The notes beneath the pieces were generated by a model that was not told the origin of the DNA, did no database searches, and saw nothing but the letters and a program-made list of their open reading frames with translations. Made by a program: the position numbers and the translations under genes. Shown piece by piece: positions 37,289 to 46,388 of a DNA stretch of 64,000 bases; the first letter of the stretch is position 1, and every line of letters starts with the position of its first letter. Origin of the DNA: an uncultured Pseudomonadota bacterium (GTDB lineage: Bacteria; Myxococcota_A; Polyangia; Fen-1088); contig CAWFVU010000002.1 of NCBI GenBank assembly GCA_963819375.1, positions 430,156 through 494,155 on the forward strand. The letters are read 5' to 3'.

Positions 37289-37438
37289 ATGGGCGCTGAC
37301 GGCAAAGACTCCGACGAACGCGCGGAGCTCGACGACGCGCCGCCGTTTCTCACCTGGCGCGCGATCTATCTCCTCGTCCTCGGCGCGCTGGCCGTCGAGG
37401 TGTTGCTCGGCGCGGCGCTGACCCTGGCCGCGTCGTGA
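37289..37438 (+). CDS. 49-aa single-TM protein coupled to the symporter gene
   Basis: Below the ORF-track size cutoff. The ATG directly follows the upstream TGA. MGADGKDSDERAELDDAPPFLTWRAIYLLVLGALAVEVLLGAALTLAAS. Its TGA overlaps GTG 37435 (GTGA). Confidence 0.5.
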   Translation: MGADGKDSDERAELDDAPPFLTWRAIYLLVLGALAVEVLLGAALTLAAS

Positions 37439-39151
37439 GCACGCTCGACTGGATCGTCCTTTTCGGGACGCTGGCCGCCATCGTCGCCTACGGGCTCTGG
37501 AAGACGCGCGGACCGTCGAGCATGACCGACTACGTGCACGGCGGTTACCGCGACCGCTGGCTGACGATCGGGCTCGGCGTCATGGCGACGCAGGCCTCGG
37601 CCATCACCTTCCTCTCGATGCCGGGCCAGGCCTACGAGGACGGCATGCGCTTCCTGCAGTTCTACTTCGGCCTGCCGATCGCGATGGTGATCCTCTCCGT
37701 CGCCTTCATCCCGCGCTTCTACCGGCTCCGCGTGCTGACCGCGTACGAGTATCTCGAGGGGCGCTTCGATCTCGAAGACGCGGCAGCTGGCGGCGTTCCT
37801 GTTTCTCCTCCAGCGGGGCCTCTCCGCCGGGATCACCATCTACGCGCCGGCGATCGTGCTCTCCAAGGTGCTCGGCTGGCCGCTGAACCTGACCTGCGTG
37901 GTGATCGGTGGCGTCGTCATCCTCTACACGGTGGCGGGCGGGACGCGGGCGGTCAGCCAGACGCAGAAGCAACAGATGGTGGTGATGCTGGGCGGGATGG
38001 TGGTGGCGTTCGTCGTCATCGTCCACAAGCTGCCGGCCGATCTGTCGTTCCGGCACGCGGTGTCGCTGGCCGGGACGCTGGGGAAGATGAACGTGGTCGA
38101 CTTCTCGCCGAGGCTCGGGAATCGCTACACGTTCTGGTCGGGCCTGGCGGGCGGCGGCTTCCTGGCGATGGCCTACTTCGGGACCGACCAGTCGCAGGTG
38201 CAGCGCTATCTCTCGGGGAAGTCGGTGACCGAGAGCCGGCTCGGGCTCCTCTTCAACGGGCTCCTCAAGGTCCCGATGCAGTTCCTGATCCTCTTCGTCG
38301 GGGTGATGGTCTTCGTCTTCTATCAATTCAACCAGCCGCCTCTCTTCTTCAACGAGTCGGAGCTGGCCCGCGTCGCCAACACGCCGCACGCGGCGGAGAT
38401 GCAGGCGTTGGAGGTCGAGCACCGGGTCGCGTTCGCCAGGAAGCGCGTCGAGGTGTCACGCCTGGCGGCGGCGCTCGACGCCGGCGACGCGCGCGCGATC
38501 GCGGACGCCCGCGCGCGCGTGCGGGCTGCGGCCGCCGGGACGGAGGCGATTCGGGAGAAGACGCGAACGCTCATCGCCGCGGCGGTCCCGCGACCCGAGA
38601 TCCACGACGGCGACTATGTCTTCCTGTCGTTCGTGATGGCCAACCTTCCGCGCGGCCTCATCGGACTCCTCCTGGCCGTCATCCTGTGCGCCGCCATGTC
38701 GTCGACGGCCAGCGAGCTGACCGCGCTCGGGGGGTGCACCGTGGTCGACTTTTACCGGCGCAGCTTTCGGAAGGAGGCGACCGACGCGCACTACCTGCGG
38801 GTCGCCAAGATCGCGACCGGCGTCTGGGGCCTGCTGGCGGTGGCGTTCGCCGGGTTCGCCTCGCTGGTCGACAACCTGATCCAGGCGGTCAACATCCTCG
38901 GCTCGCTCTTCTACGGGACGATCCTGGGGATCTTCCTGGCCGCCTTCTTCTTTCGCCGCCTGCGCGCGACGCCCGTGTTCGTCGCCGCGATCGTCTCCGA
39001 AGTCCTGGTGGTCGGACTCTGGCTGGCGACGAAGATCGGATTCCTTTGGTTCAACGTGATCGGCTGCGGCGTCGTGTTGATCTTGTCATCGCTCCTGAGC
39101 GGGTCAGACTTCGGCCGCAACTCAACCCAGACGATGGAGCTCTCCCCATGA
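37435..39151 (+). CDS. sodium:solute symporter (SSS family), one frame break
   Basis: N-terminal fragment ...GVMATQASAITFLSMPGQAY...YEYLEGRFDL joins ORF 37856..39151 when the extra G at about 37774 is removed (RFDLKTRQLAAFLFLLQRGLSAGITIYAPAIVLSKVLGWP). 13-14 predicted TM helices. Confidence 0.85.
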
Positions 39152-39750
39152 AGATCCGATCCCCTCTCCTGATGGCCTCGGTGGCCGCCCTCGGTCTCGC
39201 GACCTTCGTTGGCCGCGCGGAGGCCAAGAAGGCAACTGCGACGGCAGCGGCGCCCGCTGCCGCCAGCAACGGCTTTCAGACCGACTTCCTCGCGCTGCTC
39301 GACGACGTGCAGAAGAAGGTCCTGTCGCTGGAGGACGCCATCCCTCAGGACAAGTTCAAGTGGCGGCCGGCCCCCGGCGTCCGCTCGATCTCCGAGGCCT
39401 TCCTGCACATCGCTTACGGAAACTACGGCTTCACCAAGGGCGCCACCGGCAAGGCGCCGCCAGCCGACGTCGGCTGGGGGACGGACCACGCCAAGTGGGA
39501 CACCAAGACGACCGACAAGGCCGAGATCAAGAAGGTGCTCGAGGCCTCGTTCGATCACGTCCGCGCGGCGATGAAAGAGGTCCAGGACGCCGACCTCGAC
39601 AAGAAGGTCAACGTGTTCGGCCACGACATGACGGAGCGCGCGGTCTGGATGGCGCTCCTCGGCCACCTGAACGAGCACATGGGACAGGAGGTCGCCTACG
39701 CCCGCGCCAACAACGTCGTCCCGCCCTGGAGCATGCCCAAGGGCGGCTAA
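39148..39750 (+). CDS. secreted DinB-family (DinB_2) protein
   Basis: ATGA overlap with the symporter stop. Signal [26 protein letters not shown]. His triad context FLHIAYGNY ... [10 protein letters not shown]. Confidence 0.7.
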
Positions 39751-40553
39751 CGCGCGGTCCAGCCGCCGTCGATGAGCAGCGTCGTGCCGGTGATCATGGC
39801 GGCGGCCGGCGAGCAGAGGAAGACGACCGAGGCGGCGACGTCCGGCGGATCGCCGACGCGTCCGAGCGGGATGCGCGCCAGGAGATCGCGACGGAAGTCG
39901 TCGTCTTCGAGCCACTTCACGGTGCCGGGGGTGCGGATGAAGGTCGGCGCGACGGCGTTGACGTTGATCCCGTGGGCCGCCCATTCGACCGCCAGGCACT
40001 TCGTGAGATGGGCGATGGCCGCCTTGGTCATGCAGTAGACCGACTCGGTCGGCAGCGCGACGAAGCCGGCCTGTGAGCTCAGGTTGACGATCCGCCCGCC
40101 GCGTCCGGCGGCGATCATCGCGCGCCCGACCGCCTGGCTGACGAAGAACGTTCCCTTGAGGTTGACCGCCACCGTCGCATCGAAGTCGGCCTCGGTCACC
40201 GACTCGGCCGGGTTGGGCGGACCGATGCCGGCGTTGTTGACCAGGAGGTCGATGTGGCCGAAGTGCTCGACGGCCCGGGCGACCGCCGCCGAGATCTCCG
40301 CCGGCCGCGCGACGTCCATCTGCAACGGCAGCGCGCGGCGGCCGAGCGCGCAGACGGCATCGGCGACGTCACCCGCAGCGCGCAGATCGCGAAATCCGAG
40401 CGCCAGGTCGGCGCCGGCCCGGGCGAGCGCGATGGCCACGGCGCGACCGATCCCCCGCGCCGCCCCGGTGACGAGCGCGATCCGTCCGGCGACGTCGAAG
40501 GCCGGCGCGGCGTCGGCGTGGGCGGTCTTCCTCGAATTTGGCGTGTCGCTCAT
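39747..40553 (-). CDS. SDR-family oxidoreductase
   Basis: [15 protein letters not shown], catalytic YCMTKAA, PGTV... Confidence 0.9.
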
Positions 40554-40652
40554 TCGGAGAAGTTATCGCGTAACCGCCTGCGGCGGGCGACGTAGCACCG
40601 GTGAACAAGGACCGGGCCGCGGTGGCCCTCGACCAAAACCAGGAGAGAGACA

Positions 40653-40898
40653 ATGAGCATCAAGGGAGCAATGATCGCCGCTTCGGTGGCCGGGCTGTTC
40701 ACGATGGGCGTCGCCGGCATGGCCTCGGCGAAAAAGGGAGACGACGTGCTGTGCAGCGGCGTCAACGCCTGCAAGGGGCAGAGCGCCTGCAAGGGCGGGG
40801 ACAACGCCTGCAAGGGGAAGAACGGGTGCAAGGGGCAGGGGAACATGAAGATGAGCAAGGCCGACTGCGAGGCCAAGGGCGGAAAGGCCGTCAAGTAG
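40653..40898 (+). CDS. Sec-signal-bearing 6-Cys RiPP precursor (bufferin-like, 6/12-Cys type)
   Basis: AGGAG lies 7 nt upstream. MSIKGAMIAASVAGLFTMGVAGMASA|KKGDDVLCSGVNACKGQSACKGGDNACKGKNGCKGQGNMKMSKADCEAKGGKAVK. It sits immediately upstream of DUF692 + DUF2063 genes. Confidence 0.75.
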   Translation: MSIKGAMIAASVAGLFTMGVAGMASAKKGDDVLCSGVNACKGQSACKGGDNACKGKNGCKGQGNMKMSKADCEAKGGKAVK

Positions 40899-40911
40899 CG
40901 CAGGCGACGGG

Positions 40912-40938
40912 CCGGCGGCGCCCTCGCCGCGCCGCCGG
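40912..40938 (+). terminator. GC-rich stem-loop between precursor and enzyme genes (possible intra-operon attenuator/processing site)
   Basis: Perfect 10-bp stem CCGGCGGCGC / GCGCCGCCGG with 7-nt loop CCTCGCC. No T tract. Confidence 0.35.
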
Positions 40939-40959
40939 TCGCACGTCACCCGAGATGCC

Positions 40960-41818
40960 ATGACGACGACATCGAGTCCGCCGTTGTTTCCCGAACCTGG
41001 GTCGCGGCCTGGGGCTGCGCCGGGAGCACTACCAGCACGTCGTCGAGAATCGGCCGGCGGTCGGGTGGTTCGAGGTGATCTCGGAGAACTTCATGGGAGC
41101 GGGGGGCAACCCGCGGCGCGTGCTGGAGGCGGTCCGGCGTGATTATCCGGTCGTCCTGCACGGCGTGTCGCTGTCGATCGGCTCGACCGACCCGCTCGAC
41201 GAGCGCTACCTCGCCGAGCTCGGCGCGCTGGCGGAGGCCGTCGAGCCGGCCTGGATCTCGGACCACCTCTGTTGGGGGACGGCGCACGGGATCAACGCGC
41301 ACGATCTGTTGCCGCTGCCGTACACCGAGGAGGCGCTGGCGCACGTCGCGCGCCGCGTGGAGATCGTCCAGGAGCGCCTGGGACGAAGAATCCTCTTGGA
41401 GAACCCCTCCAGCTACCTGGTGCTCGACGGTGACATGACGGAGCACGCGTTTCTCGCCGAGCTGGCCCGGCGCGCCGATTGCGGCATCCTGCTCGACGTC
41501 AACAACGTCTTCGTGAGCGCGCACAACCATGGCTGGGATCCGCACGCCTACCTGGCGGCGATGCCGGCGGAGCGCGTCGGTCAGATTCACCTGGCCGGTC
41601 ATTCTCGAGACGGCGCGCTCCTCATCGACACGCACGACGGATACGTCGTGGACGGGGTCTGGCGTCTCTACGCCGAGGCGGTCCGGCGGTTCGGGGCGCG
41701 GTCGACCATGATTGAATGGGACGCCGACGTTCCGGCGTTCGAGGAGCTGGAGGCGGAGCTCGTGCGCGCGGCGCGCTGGGAACAGCTGGCGCTCGGGGAG
41801 CGGCGCGATGCGGCCTGA
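40960..41818 (+). CDS. DUF692/UPF0276 multinuclear non-heme iron oxidase (MNIO; MbnB/BufB-like), N-terminus out of frame by one base
   Basis: WFEVISENF, VVLHGVSLSIGS, WISDHLCW, RILLENPSSY, GILLDVNNV, IHLAGH, TMIEWD. The conserved start ...NLGRGLGLRREHYQHVVENRPAVG is in the enzyme frame but has no ATG/GTG/TTG there. ATG 40960 is in the -1 frame. One extra base lies between 40964 and 41005, probably g40993. Confidence 0.85.
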
Positions 41819-42626
41819 GCGCGCGCCCCGGCCGTCGCTGGCGTCGGTCCAGGCGGCGCTGCTGTCGCGGCTCACGGGCCAGGAGCTGGGCCTGCCGGCG
41901 TTCGAGGTGGCGTCGTTGATCCGCGGCGACGCGCGGGCGAGCGCCGAGGACCGGCTCGGGGTCTATTGCTTCATGTATGGCTCGCGCCTGGTGGAGGCGC
42001 TGGAGTCGCAGTTCCCGCGCCTCGCGCGACTGCTGGGCGCCGAGGCCTTCGCCGACCTCACCGCCGGCTACGTGGCCGATCACCCTTCGCGGCACCCGTC
42101 GCTGCGCGAGCTCGGCCGTGCGCTGCCCGGCTGGCTGGGGGCGCGGCGCCCGAACGAACGAGCGCTGGCGCCGTTGGCGGCGCTCGATTGGGCGCGCGCC
42201 GACGTCTACGATCTCGCCGACGAGCCCGCCATGACGCTGGACGCGCCTCGCGCCTTTTCGCCGGAGCGCTTCGGCGAGCTGCCGCTCAAATTGATCGCGG
42301 CGCACCGGTTCGTCGAGGTCGACCGCGGGACCGAGGCGTTGTGGGACCGGCTCGCGCCAACCGCCGCAGACGCGCCGGGCGCGGTCCCCACGCCGCTCGA
42401 GGCCGGTCCGGGTGCCACGCTGCTCGTCTGGCGCCAGGAGATCGCCGTCTATCACCGCGCCGTCGATCCGGAGGAGCGCGCGGCGCTCGCGCTGGTCTCG
42501 GCCGGAAGCCGGTTCGGCGTCATCTGCGACGCGCTCTCGGCGGCGCATGGTGACGAGGCCGCCGCGGCGCGGGCGTTTGCCTGGCTCTCGACCTGGATCG
42601 CCGATGGCCTCCTGACCGAGATCTGA
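41808..42626 (+). CDS. DUF2063-type MNIO partner protein (BufC-like)
   Basis: ATG 41808 overlaps the DUF692 gene by 11 nt. ...RLGVYCFMYGSRLVEALESQFPRLARLLG..FADLTAGYVADHPSRHPSLRELG..LP.WL matches the family N-terminal domain as I recall it. Confidence 0.7.
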   Translation: MRPERAPRPSLASVQAALLSRLTGQELGLPAFEVASLIRGDARASAEDRLGVYCFMYGSRLVEALESQFPRLARLLGAEAFADLTAGYVADHPSRHPSLRELGRALPGWLGARRPNERALAPLAALDWARADVYDLADEPAMTLDAPRAFSPERFGELPLKLIAAHRFVEVDRGTEALWDRLAPTAADAPGAVPTPLEAGPGATLLVWRQEIAVYHRAVDPEERAALALVSAGSRFGVICDALSAAHGDEAAAARAFAWLSTWIADGLLTEI

Positions 42627-42689
42627 CGCCCGAACCCTGGCGTCCCTTGCCCACCCGCACCGCTCGCCCCCGGTGTAAAATGAACTGGC

Positions 42690-44099
42690 GTGGCGAACTG
42701 GCGCATCGGTGTGGCCTGCGCGGCGTTGCTGGTCGTGGCTTGCAGCAGCGGCGACGGCCTCGGCGGAAGCGGCGGCGACGCGACCGGAGCGGGCGGCATC
42801 GCCACGGGTGGCGTCGCGACCGGCGGCCGGAGCGCCGGCGGCGTCTCGGGCACGGCCGGTGCGGGGGCCAGCGGCGCGACGGGGGGCGTCGGGCTTGGAG
42901 GCGTGACCGGCACCGCCGGGTCGCCGGGCACCGGTGGCGGCACGGCAGGCTCGTCAGGCACCGGCGGCGTCGCGCCGTCGGGCCCCTGGGTGATGGGCTA
43001 CTGGGCGGTCTGGCAGACGACGCAGTATCCGCTGGCCCACGTCGCCTGGGGCGAGATGACCCACGCCGCGATCTCCTTCGTCGAGCCGCGGGCGCCAGGC
43101 GCGACCTCGTCCGCCAGTCCGTACGCCACGCTCGATTCGAGCAACGTCGTCGACAACCTCGGCGCGACCGGGATGTCGGACTTCGCCGTCGCCGCGCACA
43201 ACGGCGGCGCGCACCCGATCCTCTCGCTCGGTGGGGCCGGCGCGGGCGCCGGGTTCGCCGCCGCCGCCGCCCCGGCGAACCAGAAGCAGTTCGTCAGCGA
43301 AGTCGTCGCTGCCTGCGCCAAGTGGCACTACGACGGCGTCGACCTCGACTGGGAGGATGGCATCAACCTCGCCGACTTTCAGAGCCTCGTGTTGGCGCTG
43401 CGGGCGGCCGCGCCGCCGGGGTTCCTGATCACCGCGCCGGTCGGCGCCGTCAACAACAACGCCGGCATCGACGCGGGGACTGCCGCCCTGTGGACGGCGG
43501 TCGCGGGCGCCGTCGATCAGATCAACGTCATGACCTACACCGGCTCGGGGAACTATCCCGGCTGGGTGGTCTGGTACCTCGACCCGCTCATGGGCGCGGG
43601 GTCCGATCATCCGTTCGACGTCGCGTCGTCGCTCGCGGCCTGGGCGGCGCTCGGCATCCCCAAGTCGAAGCTGGGGGTCGGGATCGGCTTTTACGGGCGG
43701 GCGGTCAGCGCGCCGGTCACGGCGGCGCTGCAGAGCTACGGCAGCGCCACCGTCTACGAGGACGACACCGAGCTCTCCTACGGCAACATCCAGCACTACT
43801 TCGTCGGTCACGGTGGCGCCGTCTCGCACTGGGACGCCACCGCCATGACCACCTGGCTGTCGTGGACGACGACCTTCCACCCGTCGTGGACGGAGCAGTT
43901 TCCCGGCGACCCGGGACCGGCGACCCAGTTCCTCACCTTTGAAGACGTGCCGACGGTGACGGCCAAGGGGACGTGGCTGAAGGCGAACGGCTACGGCGGC
44001 GTCATCATCTGGACGATCAACGAGGGGACGCAGTATCCGTACGGTGGCGACGGGTACGCCAACCCGCTCCTCGACGCGACCGCCGCCGCATTCCGCTAG
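42690..44099 (+). CDS. GH18 chitinase-like lipoprotein
   Basis: Lipobox LLVVACSS, linker, catalytic DGVDLDWE, MTYTG, GGVIIWTINEG. Confidence 0.88.
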   Translation: MANWRIGVACAALLVVACSSGDGLGGSGGDATGAGGIATGGVATGGRSAGGVSGTAGAGASGATGGVGLGGVTGTAGSPGTGGGTAGSSGTGGVAPSGPWVMGYWAVWQTTQYPLAHVAWGEMTHAAISFVEPRAPGATSSASPYATLDSSNVVDNLGATGMSDFAVAAHNGGAHPILSLGGAGAGAGFAAAAAPANQKQFVSEVVAACAKWHYDGVDLDWEDGINLADFQSLVLALRAAAPPGFLITAPVGAVNNNAGIDAGTAALWTAVAGAVDQINVMTYTGSGNYPGWVVWYLDPLMGAGSDHPFDVASSLAAWAALGIPKSKLGVGIGFYGRAVSAPVTAALQSYGSATVYEDDTELSYGNIQHYFVGHGGAVSHWDATAMTTWLSWTTTFHPSWTEQFPGDPGPATQFLTFEDVPTVTAKGTWLKANGYGGVIIWTINEGTQYPYGGDGYANPLLDATAAAFR

Positions 44100-44112: not shown

Positions 44113-44754
44113 ATGGCCTTCTTCGCTCCAACGCCCGCTCCCACCGGGGGCCTGCACGCGGCCGCCACCGAGCGGAACCGCGGGCCGATCCTGGAGGTTC
44201 TCCGGCGTGTCCTTCCGCCCGCGGGCCTGGTGCTGGAGATCGCGAGCGGGACGGGGCAGCACGTGGCGTTCTTCGCGCGCGAGCTGCCGGCGCTGCGCTG
44301 GCAGCCTTCGGATCCATCGCCCGTGCACCTCGACAGCATCCGCGCCTGGACCGCGGCGTCCGGCGCGGACAACGTCGCGGCTCCGTTGCAGCTCGACGTC
44401 GAGCTTGCGCCCTGGCCGGTTCCTCAGGCCGACGCGATCTTGAACATCAACATGATCCACATCGCGCCCTGGTCGGCGGCCGAGGCGCTGTTTCGCGGGG
44501 CGGCGCGCCTCTTGCCATCGGCCGGTGTCCTTTTCCTCTACGGTCCTTTCAAGCGCGAGGGTCGCCATACAGCGGAGAGCAACGCGCGCTTCGACGAGCG
44601 GCTGCGCGGCGAGGATGCCCGCTGGGGCGTGCGCGACCTCGGCGACGTTCAGACGCTCGCCGCCGCGGCCGGCTTCGCTGCGCCGGAGGTGATCGCCATG
44701 CCGGCGAACAACCTCTCGCTCGTGTTTCGCCGGAACGGCCCGGCCGGATCTTAA
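44113..44754 (+). CDS. DUF938-family SAM-dependent methyltransferase
   Basis: ATG 44113. ATERNRGPILEVL, VLEIASGTGQH, NINMIHIAPW, FLYGPF. Confidence 0.8.
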   Translation: MAFFAPTPAPTGGLHAAATERNRGPILEVLRRVLPPAGLVLEIASGTGQHVAFFARELPALRWQPSDPSPVHLDSIRAWTAASGADNVAAPLQLDVELAPWPVPQADAILNINMIHIAPWSAAEALFRGAARLLPSAGVLFLYGPFKREGRHTAESNARFDERLRGEDARWGVRDLGDVQTLAAAAGFAAPEVIAMPANNLSLVFRRNGPAGS

Positions 44755-46292
44755 AGCCGGCTGGCGTAGGCCGTCTTCATGGGCGGGTAGAGCGCGAGAT
44801 CGGGCAGGGCCGTGTAGTTGTTCCCCGAGCGCTGCCAGAGCGCATGGGTCGTCTGCGTGGCGTCGGACGGCTGCGCGTTGTTCCAGCTCCCCTGCGAGGT
44901 CGGCTCCCAGTCGAACGTCCCCAGCCCCTGATTGTTGGGCAGACCGAACACCACGTCGTTGATCTGCCGCTCCATCGGGCCGTACTCGGCGGCGAAGAAG
45001 CGAATCTTCGGGTAGGCCGTGACCAGCTGCGAGAACGTCGACTGCCAGGCGGTCTGGGTGTTGGCCTGGCTGTTCACGTCCCCCTGGTACTGCTGGTAGC
45101 AGGACTCGCCGAAGGTGTCGGGGGTGGCGCCCTGCTTGATCGCGTTGTCGAGCCAGTTCTTGGTCGTCGAGTAAGCGTTGCCGCGATCGATGTGGAACGA
45201 GATCAGGATCCCGGTGTCGACGTCCTTGACGCCCTGGACGCCGGCCTTGAGCAGCATGCCCAGGTTCGGCCAGCCCGCCGTCGATGCGGCGCCGGTGACC
45301 TTGGGCGCCGTTCCGGTCGGCTGCCCGCCGGAGTCGCAGATGTGGAGCAGCATGCCGGGTGTCGTCTCGTTGCCGATCTGGACCATGTCGGGCCGCGCGC
45401 CGCCAGCGATGAGGGCGGTGATGGAGCTCTTCACGTAGTCGTGCAGCGCCGTCGAGAGATCGGTGATGTTGGTGTACCCCTGCCAGGCGACCGGCATGCA
45501 CTGCTTGCCCGGGTCGGCCCAGTTGTCGCTCATGTGAAAGTCGACGAGGAGGCCCATCCCGGCGTCCTTGACCAGCTTGCCGAAGGTAACCGTGTGGGTG
45601 ATGTCGTCGTAGCCGTTGGTCCTGTCGTAGCCGTCGGAGGCCTTCGGGTCGACGAAGGTCCGCAGGCGAACGAAGTTGAAGCCGTTGGACTTCATCGACG
45701 TGAGCAGGTTGTTGATGGCGGTCGTGCCAGCCGTCTCCTGATCGGTGACGTCGGCGCCGAAGAAGTAGCTCGGCAGTGTGCTCGTTCCCGAGCCGCCCGT
45801 CCCCGTGACGCCGCCCGTGGCGCTGCCGCCGGTTCCCTTGGCGCCCGCCACGCCGCCGGTGCCGGTCGTTCCGCCGGTTCCCTTGGCGCCCGCCGCGCCG
45901 CCGGTGCCGGTGGTGCCACCGGTTCCCTTGGCACCCGCCGCACCGCCGGTGCCGGTCGTGCCTCCGGTGGCTGTCGTGCCCCCCGTGCCGGTCGCACCAC
46001 CGGTGGCTGTCGCGCCGCCGGTTCCCTTGGCGCCCGCCGCGCCGCCGCCGGTCCCCGTGACGCCGCCCGTGCTGACCGCGCCTCCGGTTCCCGTGCCGCT
46101 GCCGCCGGTGCCCGCTCCGCCCGTGCCGCTGCCGGTTCCGCCCGAGCCGCTTCCCCCTTCGCCGTTGCCGCCGCCGCTCGCGGTCGCCCCGCCCGTGGCG
46201 GAAGCACCGCCCTCACCGGTGTCGGTGCCTTGGCTGTTGGCGCAGCCCCACAGCGTGGCCGCAAACAGAAGGAGATAGGCGCGTTTGTGCAT
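44751..46292 (-). CDS. GH53 arabinogalactan endo-beta-1,4-galactanase lipoprotein
   Basis: I prefer ATG 46292 (MHKRAYLLLFAATLWGC). Long linker. FFGADVT, NGFNFVRLRTFVDP, LLVDFHMSDNWADPGKQ, VQIGNETT (acid/base), FFAAEYG (nucleophile). Confidence 0.88.
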   Translation of the reverse strand: MHKRAYLLLFAATLWGCANSQGTDTGEGGASATGGATASGGGNGEGGSGSGGTGSGTGGAGTGGSGTGTGGAVSTGGVTGTGGGAAGAKGTGGATATGGATGTGGTTATGGTTGTGGAAGAKGTGGTTGTGGAAGAKGTGGTTGTGGVAGAKGTGGSATGGVTGTGGSGTSTLPSYFFGADVTDQETAGTTAINNLLTSMKSNGFNFVRLRTFVDPKASDGYDRTNGYDDITHTVTFGKLVKDAGMGLLVDFHMSDNWADPGKQCMPVAWQGYTNITDLSTALHDYVKSSITALIAGGARPDMVQIGNETTPGMLLHICDSGGQPTGTAPKVTGAASTAGWPNLGMLLKAGVQGVKDVDTGILISFHIDRGNAYSTTKNWLDNAIKQGATPDTFGESCYQQYQGDVNSQANTQTAWQSTFSQLVTAYPKIRFFAAEYGPMERQINDVVFGLPNNQGLGTFDWEPTSQGSWNNAQPSDATQTTHALWQRSGNNYTALPDLALYPPMKTAYASRL

Positions 46293-46388
46293 GGAGCTCC
46301 GCAGGGGGGTAGGAGGTGAACGGACAGTCGTCACCGCTACTTGTTGCGGGAGCCCGGGGGAATCAATCACGGACGAGCTGACTTTTCT

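Follow-up and report, generated by a model that had tools for sequence, protein, structure and literature searches.

Do the three co-directional genes at positions 40653-42626 of the DNA shown above encode an unusual copper-binding peptide system, or one more example of a known one? The DNA is a stretch of 64 kb from contig CAWFVU010000002.1 (contig positions 430,156 to 494,155), and this whole stretch is called the window in the following. A sequence-only reading of the window had recognised a bufferin-type cluster for a ribosomally synthesised and post-translationally modified peptide (RiPP) and had regarded several of its features as unusual. Bufferins, also termed captophorins, are among the largest RiPP families and are a means of bacterial copper tolerance that has been recognised only recently. 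We conclude with good confidence that the three genes form a canonical bufA2-bufB-bufC operon of the Buf2 bufferin or 'Cys-Lys' captophorin type from a high-GC soil member of the Polyangia (Myxococcota). The second of these names is that of the newer nomenclature, in which the cluster pairs a multinuclear non-heme iron oxidase (MNIO) with a PME1 partner (PMC13097082). The cluster is a further member of an already described and very large family, nothing in it challenges the published model, and its value is that of another example among the uncultured Polyangia of soil.

Family assignment of the three genes

Inspection of the open reading frames (ORFs) of the window places bufA2, bufB and bufC on the same (+) strand. 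The first gene, bufA2 (40653..40898), encodes a bufferin-2 precursor of 81 aa, which reads MSIKGAMIAASVAGLFTMGVAGMASA up to the predicted cleavage site and KKGDDVLCSGVNACKGQSACKGGDNACKGKNGCKGQGNMKMSKADCEAKGGKAVK after it. The assignment draws on its homologues, its six Cys residues and the NCBIfam model NF050166 (Cu_RiPP_BufA2, Buf_6/12Cys), which was matched at 74 bits (cutoff 60, E-value 8.3e-21), the alignment spanning model positions 2-78 of 79. No Pfam family, DUF2282 included, matched BufA at E <= 0.1, and the peptide therefore is not of the DUF2282/Buf1 type. Judged by eye, residues 1-26 (40653-40730) are a predicted Sec signal peptide with Lys4, a 19-residue hydrophobic stretch and cleavage between ASA and KK, while a lipobox Cys and a twin-Arg motif are both missing. 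The core of 55 aa (40731-40895) carries Cys at residues 34, 40, 46, 53, 59 and 72 with the spacing 5-5-6-5-12 (C-x5-C-x5-C-x6-C-x5-C-x12-C), and four of these six residues lie within A/G-C-K-G units.

The second gene, bufB (40960..41818, +), encodes the maturase, an MNIO of the DUF692 family, and is interrupted in the window by a 1-nt insertion near 40994 that is treated in a separate section. The repaired product of 285 aa reached 378.5 bits with the NCBIfam model NF050167 (MNIO_BufB; cutoff 310, E-value 1.5e-113) and 366 bits with PF05114; among solved structures, 3BWW is the nearest to it (4.8e-43), and TglH and MbnB come next. In MbnB, the two- or three-iron site is formed by H54, H90, E133, D163, N166, H192, D208, H210 and E239 (PMC9060507), and the counterparts of these nine ligands in BufB are H67, H102, E147, D179, N182, H210, D223, H225 and E252. 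Eight of them were obtained by direct alignment with 7TCR, while E252 has a Glu counterpart in both 3BWW and TglH and is displaced by 2 residues when aligned with MbnB without gaps. The motif IEWD-A-D of BufB (residues 252-256, window 41713-41727) has Ala255 directly after the catalytic Asp, at a position that was proposed to contact the substrate Lys (PMC13097082). This position is Asp in 55 of the 63 BufA2-linked BufB proteins having the motif, and Ala or Met in the closest Polyangia relatives. Ala at this proposed Lys-contact site may lead to a somewhat different modification pattern in the subclade to which the window belongs.

The third gene, bufC (41808..42626, +), encodes a DUF2063 partner of the PME1 type with 272 aa and a C-terminal RRE-like domain. 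It scored 63.8 bits with PF09836 (cutoff 27.2, E-value 1.9e-17), while no NCBIfam BufC equivalog matched, the sole NCBIfam match being HvfC with 32.9 bits against a cutoff of 142. Likewise, a PDB sequence search gave no match to BufC, and only fold comparison worked. The AlphaFold2 model (predicted local distance difference test score, pLDDT, 90.3; predicted template modelling score, pTM, 0.85) was found by Foldseek to resemble TglI, the partner of the MNIO TglH (8HI7_A, 3.3e-4), and NGO1945, a gonococcal DUF2063 protein (3DEE, 3.8e-4), with weaker similarity to MbnC and RRE proteins. The first 11 nt of bufC coincide with the last 11 nt of bufB, and an 11-nt overlap is likewise kept in three relatives (L003, L010 and L012), which suggests translational coupling of the two genes.

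From the families of precursor, MNIO and partner, the cluster is therefore assigned to the Buf2-type bufferins. The sequence-only reading had named three co-directional genes forming a bufferin-type RiPP triad, and all three pass curated models. Its description of the peptide at 40653-40898, with 81 aa, six Cys in the spacing given above and four A/G-C-K-G units, was confirmed, the Sec signal ending in ASA before KK is consistent by inspection, and 41808-42626 was rightly taken as a DUF2063 partner overlapping bufB by 11 nt. That reading had also proposed a search against profile models and a comparison of gene neighbourhoods. The former returned BufA2 (6/12-Cys), DUF692 and DUF2063 but no DUF2282, and the latter recovered the precursor-MNIO order in most loci: at least 598 BufB relatives were found in species-representative genomes, and a BufA2-like gene lies immediately upstream in 70 of the best 80 BufB loci, across phyla.

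By tblastn, no homologues of doxX, ECF (extracytoplasmic function) sigma factor or nrsF genes were found in the whole 64-kb window, which bears out the claimed absence of a DoxX gene and of adjacent ECF/anti-sigma genes. Neither absence is unusual, however. In Caulobacter vibrioides, the founding Buf2 bufferin operon, bufA2B2C2 (CCNA_02999-03001), has no doxX gene either, and Buf1 can mature and function when DoxX is missing (PMC11626156). When about 14,000 MNIOs were surveyed, sigma/NrsF genes turned up in clusters of the Buf1 type but not in those of the Buf2 type (PMC12452194); Caulobacter buf2 is nonetheless controlled by SigF, from a distance. The view that the CKG core with six Cys is a little-studied variant had to be abandoned. 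Among precursor families, Buf2 ranks second in size, and 90% of its members have six Cys (PMC12452194); for Caulobacter Buf2, part of the chemistry has been worked out. We collected 1078 BufA homologues; the six Cys are invariant in an alignment of 68 sequences, and the 5-5-6-5-12 spacing is the dominant family pattern, being present in 56 of the 76 domains of the genome loci and 114 of the 120 close homologues. Four CKG units are at the upper end of the family range, yet not rare. A myxobacterial (Polyangia) host is plausible from the nearest records, which are labelled as Polyangia, 'Myxococcales' or delta-proteobacterial metagenome-assembled genomes (MAGs), and the GC content is 70.5%; such a host is not unusual either, as the operon recurs in at least 18 contigs of Polyangia type. 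Since the absence of doxX and sigma genes, the Cys spacing and the occurrence in Polyangia are all normal for Buf2, we do not consider the locus unusual.

An identical BufA peptide is encoded by eight metagenome contigs. Their bufA genes differ from that of the window by 1-5 nucleotides per contig, all at third codon positions and all synonymous, while the DNA around bufA diverges by 3-15% in the same contigs; by these comparisons, bufA is evidently under purifying selection. Within the core-coding DNA, an imperfect 18-nt tandem repeat covers the CKG units (40764..40838, +), its unit corresponding approximately to N-A-C-K-G-Q (Tandem Repeats Finder: period 18, 4 copies, 75% matches). Precursor architecture varies among the relatives. 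The precursor of Legionella tucsonensis (L054, 4588-4914) consists almost wholly of CKGKNG repeats and has 12 Cys, duplicated two-domain precursors with 12/13 Cys occur in other loci (L032, L056, L064, L065, L067, L073 and L075), and tandem pairs of precursor genes were seen in still others (L040, L047, L062 and L079).

As for the neighbouring genes, an SDR gene upstream (39747-40553, minus strand) and a GH18 protein gene downstream (42690-44099, +) were confirmed as the flanks named in the sequence-only reading, and the lipoprotein signal that it ascribed to the GH18 protein is plausible from the N-terminus MANWRIGVACAALLVVAC. We rejected both as members of the cluster. The SDR gene is divergently oriented and kept only among the closest relatives, and the gene located 3' of bufC varies among relatives (DUF3857/transglutaminase, adenylate cyclase and others).

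Promoter-like motif, intergenic hairpin and proposed mechanism

A pattern scan revealed an ECF sigma-F-type promoter-like motif, GTAACC-N15-CGTA, at 40570..40594 (+), which ends 58 nt upstream of the bufA ATG. The GTAACC-type pattern has two matches in the window compared with 0.13 expected by chance. All 18 Polyangia-type loci have GTAACC-N15-CGTA ahead of bufA, at a distance of 56-87 nt from its start codon, and the motif persists in loci whose flanks have diverged. In one Polyangia relative (L010, 8781-10799, minus strand), the same motif precedes a separate operon of doxX, an ECF sigma gene and nrsF, the NrsF Pfam match being 52 bits, and in two further loci it precedes doxX alone (L011, 6678-7222, minus strand; L069, 4882-5389, +). 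These motif-preceded doxX units lie a few kb from bufABC, and doxX in the Polyangia lineage thus appears to be transcribed separately from bufABC and within one putative regulon. The SigF site of Caulobacter was determined experimentally as GTAACC-N16-CGAA (PMC3511200), both buf1 and buf2 of Caulobacter belong to the SigF regulon (PMC3511200, PMC11626156), and TGTAACC-N16-CGAAT was found in two alphaproteobacterial loci of our collected set. By this resemblance, the operon is likely under the control of a SigF-like ECF sigma factor whose gene lies outside the window.

The second match in the window, GTAACC-N16-CGTA at 45586-45611 (+), was dismissed as a chance occurrence; it lies antisense inside a GH53 gene and is not kept in the 98%-identical contig L089. 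The GH53 gene itself (44751-46370, minus strand) has 45-nt and 15-21-nt tandem repeats at 45824-46179, which encode a long Gly/Thr/Ala-rich N-terminal linker. Downstream of the promoter-like motif, a Shine-Dalgarno sequence AGGAG (40641..40645, +) was read 7 nt before the bufA ATG and is kept in the alignment of upstream regions. Between these two elements, in the predicted 5' untranslated region of bufA, a small GC hairpin (GGGCCGCGGTGGCCC, 40614-40628) was found by the terminator scan on the minus strand and is kept in the closest relatives only. Apart from this stem, sigma-70 and intrinsic-terminator scans of 40300-42900 returned one antisense promoter-like match inside bufB and nothing useful. 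Rfam gave no family match in the region or the whole window, and there were no tRNAs either.

The gap between bufA and bufB contains a second element. RNA folding predicts a GC-rich hairpin at 40906..40947 (+), composed of a 12-bp stem (GGCCGGCGGCGC / GCGCCGCCGGUC), 4 outer pairs and a 7-nt loop, with a fold of -41.4 kcal/mol (z = -2.7). In 11 of 11 Polyangia relatives tested, a hairpin with a near-perfect core stem of 10-14 bp occupies the same place with unrelated sequence. Over 67 Buf2 loci from several phyla, folding of the intergenic region was more stable than that of shuffled sequences: the median z was -2.5, 64% of the values were below -1.5, and the median longest stem was 12 bp. Among these 67 loci (from L009-L086), the hairpin is family-wide, being seen in Gammaproteobacteria, Polyangia, Legionella and others, and it is missing in a few loci with gaps of 33-48 nt (e.g. 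the Binatus-type L066 and L070). Attenuator or stabilising hairpins of such kind occur in other RiPP operons. We surmise that the hairpin acts as an attenuator or a transcript-stabilising element that may raise the ratio of precursor to enzyme.

Taken together, we tentatively propose, as a reading that could well be right or wrong, that Buf2 operons carry two conserved regulatory elements: a sigma-F-type promoter in Polyangia, tying bufABC to doxX or doxX-sigF-nrsF, and a hairpin conserved across phyla that probably sets the precursor:enzyme ratio. Neither the promoter motif nor the hairpin was found in a term search of the two main bufferin papers. If the proposal is true, the SigF/NrsF metal-stress regulon defined in Caulobacter extends to another phylum. 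Both elements are modest additions, which could guide expression studies and genome-mining rules concerning operon boundaries and regulon members.

The mechanism that we propose for the cluster is modelled on Caulobacter Buf1 and Buf2, while the family membership, the iron ligands, the fold of the partner, the operon layout and the non-coding elements were computed here. Buf1 needs BufB and BufC, and these two suffice for it; in Caulobacter Buf2, each of the four central Cys loses 4 Da, whereas CysI and CysVI remain unmodified, with a disulfide probably joining them. Caulobacter Buf2 has an absorbance at 305 nm, and copper induces it via SigF (PMC11626156). The 5-thiooxazole assignment has since been generalised across MNIO-PME1 clusters (PMC13097082). 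By analogy, metal stress would trigger transcription from the motif at 40570-40594 through a sigma/anti-sigma pair encoded elsewhere in the genome, and the hairpin after bufA would keep precursor mRNA in excess of enzyme mRNA. In the cytoplasm, iron-dependent BufB and RRE-containing BufC would then convert C40, C46, C53 and C59 into 5-thiooxazoles, after which the precursor would be exported by the Sec pathway and cut by signal peptidase after Ala26. In the periplasm, a C34-C72 disulfide would form, and the 55-residue product would chelate excess copper. The computed monoisotopic mass of the core is 5461.57 Da unmodified and 5443.43 Da for the predicted mature product.

An alternative concerns the last step of this scheme. 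The same bufferin chemistry might serve a role other than copper buffering, in response to Cd, Cr, Au or Hg, in oxidative or sulfur stress, or in myxobacterial predation. The SigF regulon of Caulobacter was originally delineated in cells stressed with chromium and cadmium (PMC3511200), MerC-Buf2 fusions suggest other metals for some bufferins (PMC12452194), relatives link the same promoter to doxX, and no copper-resistance genes are present in the window. Nevertheless, the characterised Buf1, Buf2 and related captophorins are linked to copper, and the window peptide is indistinct from the copper-linked Buf2 consensus, so that we consider a non-copper role unlikely.

The frame break in bufB

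The interval 40960-41818, which the sequence-only reading had presented as the DUF692 gene, belongs to that family (PF05114, NF050167) but is not an open frame. Its length of 859 nt is not divisible by 3, owing to the 1-nt insertion; the sequence-only reading, which identified the system correctly and overrated its novelty, overlooked this frame break. The ATG at 40960 opens an ORF of 60 codons, while the DUF692 body lies in the next frame: the first 11 codons (40960-40992) are read in the former frame, and everything from about 40994 onwards in the latter. In the body frame, a TGA is located at 40961-40963, and the first ATG/GTG/TTG is the GTG at 41075. When the bufB 5' end was aligned with those of six related contigs, the window was found to carry one extra base in CCCGAACC (about 40994; wider context TTTCCCGAACC) compared with every relative examined. 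The extra base is outside any long homopolymer, with AA within CCCGAACC.

The two nearest contigs, L001 and L089, are 97-98% identical to the window, and neither of them has the extra base. L089 reads CCCGACC at the break site, encodes an intact BufB of 285 aa starting with MTTTSSPPLFPDLGRGLGLRREHY, and matches the window throughout the bufABC segment of about 2 kb except at four positions. Intact BufB orthologues of 283-285 aa are encoded in L002, L003, L012 and L089. Alignments of about 7 kb contain 52 gap positions between the window and L001 and 69 between the window and L089, with dozens of single-base indels among all three, and the closest named records are long-read 'MFD' MAGs. Moreover, a sodium:solute symporter gene 3 kb upstream (37435-39151, +) is likewise split by one extra base at about 37775-37779, where the window reads ttcgatctCgaagac and L002 reads ttcgatctgaagac; intact 571-aa orthologues of this gene are present in L002, L003 and L012. 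These breaks suggest scattered single-base indel errors throughout the window. Because near-identical contigs are intact, mutual indels are many and the symporter gene is also broken, we read the bufB frame break as an error of long-read consensus or assembly, and regard this explanation as very probably correct.

If the extra base at 40994 were real instead, BufB would lack a normal start and N-terminus, the peptide would be exported unmodified or not be made, and the operon would be a decaying, non-functional remnant. Such a view takes the frame break as it stands in the given sequence, where it does not fall in a long homopolymer. Decay, however, has left no other defects, as bufA and bufC are intact, the iron ligands of BufB are kept, and the GC content at third codon positions (GC3) is 0.87 throughout the body of the gene; the absence of the insertion from L001 and L089 and the pattern of mutual indels and a broken symporter gene, typical of long-read consensus errors, speak against it as well. 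A remnant is thus quite improbable.

Other ways of reading the gene were set aside. A start at the GTG at 41075 would drop the conserved N-terminus with GLGLRREH and WFEVISENF, which is aligned to 3BWW from residue 14, and a start at the CTG at 40997 is possible but unneeded, since the relatives use the ATG that corresponds to 40960. As bufB is a plain open frame in all relatives, we rejected programmed frameshifting as well. As a practical warning, single-base indels in long-read MAGs break biosynthetic genes, and odd ORFs or apparent pseudogenes should be checked against related contigs.

Weighing the assignment against known systems

Several points weigh against the assignment and the mechanism drawn from it. 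The function of this locus is assigned by analogy. The promoter-like motif departs from the Caulobacter SigF site in its spacer, 15 instead of 16, and in its -10 element, CGTA instead of CGAA, and the window holds no sigF/nrsF pair. The hairpin is not followed by a U-tract 3' of its stem, and its own z in the window is modest for a sequence of 70% GC (-1.65 to -2.7). The AlphaFold model of the precursor is weak (pLDDT 59); a strand at 31-35 and a helix at 69-74 fit the published layout, but the model is too poor to test the C34-C72 disulfide, which is proposed by analogy only. BufB has Ala rather than Asp at the proposed contact with the substrate Lys (IEWD-A-D), and one consensus sequence leaves room for a true strain-specific frameshift in bufB.

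Two further explanations concern the kind of product. The cluster might make another class of MNIO product, namely an oxazolin or fontiphorin of the Lys-Cys type, a methanobactin-like peptide with oxazolone-thioamides, or a DUF2282 Buf1. All of these employ DUF692 enzymes with partners, and BufB also matches HvfB and, weakly, MbnB. These matches nonetheless stay under their cutoffs (HvfB 258 bits, cutoff 360; MbnB 70 bits, cutoff 325; ApyH and ChrH far below), while the BufB model was passed; the core has C-K-G units instead of EGKCG repeats, there is no DUF2282 match, and 5-thiooxazoles rather than oxazolone-thioamides have recently been assigned to this clade of enzymes. A different product class is accordingly very improbable. 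That the peptide is an unmodified Cys-rich secreted protein, standing beside an MNIO pair that acts on another substrate, is scarcely credible, since the sizeable fractions of Buf1/Buf2 precursor genes that published surveys report as not adjoining an MNIO gene are set against the precursor-MNIO-partner order in 70 of 80 loci across phyla, operon-like spacing, a common promoter and the lack of any other candidate substrate nearby.

Among the characterised systems, methanobactin (MbnABC) shares with the window cluster an MNIO TIM-barrel with the same iron ligands and a partner protein, and by analogy the conversion of Cys into a copper-binding heterocycle. In contrast, MbnA is a short leader-core peptide without a signal peptide, its product carries oxazolone-thioamides, and MbnC is not a DUF2063 protein. 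The 'Lys-Cys' captophorins, that is oxazolin (HvfABC), fontiphorin and gonophorin (PMC13097082, PMC11252979), come closer, as they combine an MNIO with a PME1 (DUF2063) partner, and the conversion of Cys to 5-thiooxazole and the link to copper would be common to both. Their precursors, however, contain EGKCG repeats, whereas the window peptide has C-K-G and not K-C-G units; the HvfB and HvfC models remain below cutoff for the window proteins, and FonBC did not process an NACKG substrate (PMC13097082). Buf1 (DUF2282, bufA1B1C1D1) likewise has the pair of MNIO and DUF2063 protein and Sec export, and its thiooxazole chemistry and copper buffering are counted as common by analogy. Unlike the window cluster, it has four-Cys DUF2282 precursors, and its clusters usually include doxX and often sigF/nrsF.

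The closest counterpart is buf2 of Caulobacter. The two clusters differ in several respects: the window host belongs to the Myxococcota (Polyangia), not the Alphaproteobacteria, its promoter-like motif has N15-CGTA where Caulobacter has N16-CGAA, its core has 55 aa compared with 61 aa, and its BufB, frame-broken in the assembly, carries Ala255 where most Cys-Lys MNIOs have Asp. The likeness of the window peptide and MNIO to this system was established via NCBIfam equivalogs that are named after the Caulobacter system. The promoter-like motif of the window nevertheless resembles the Caulobacter sigma-F site. Both clusters consist of three genes only, without doxX and without adjacent sigma/anti-sigma genes, and both combine a Sec signal peptide, a six-Cys core, a BufB-type MNIO and a DUF2063/RRE partner.

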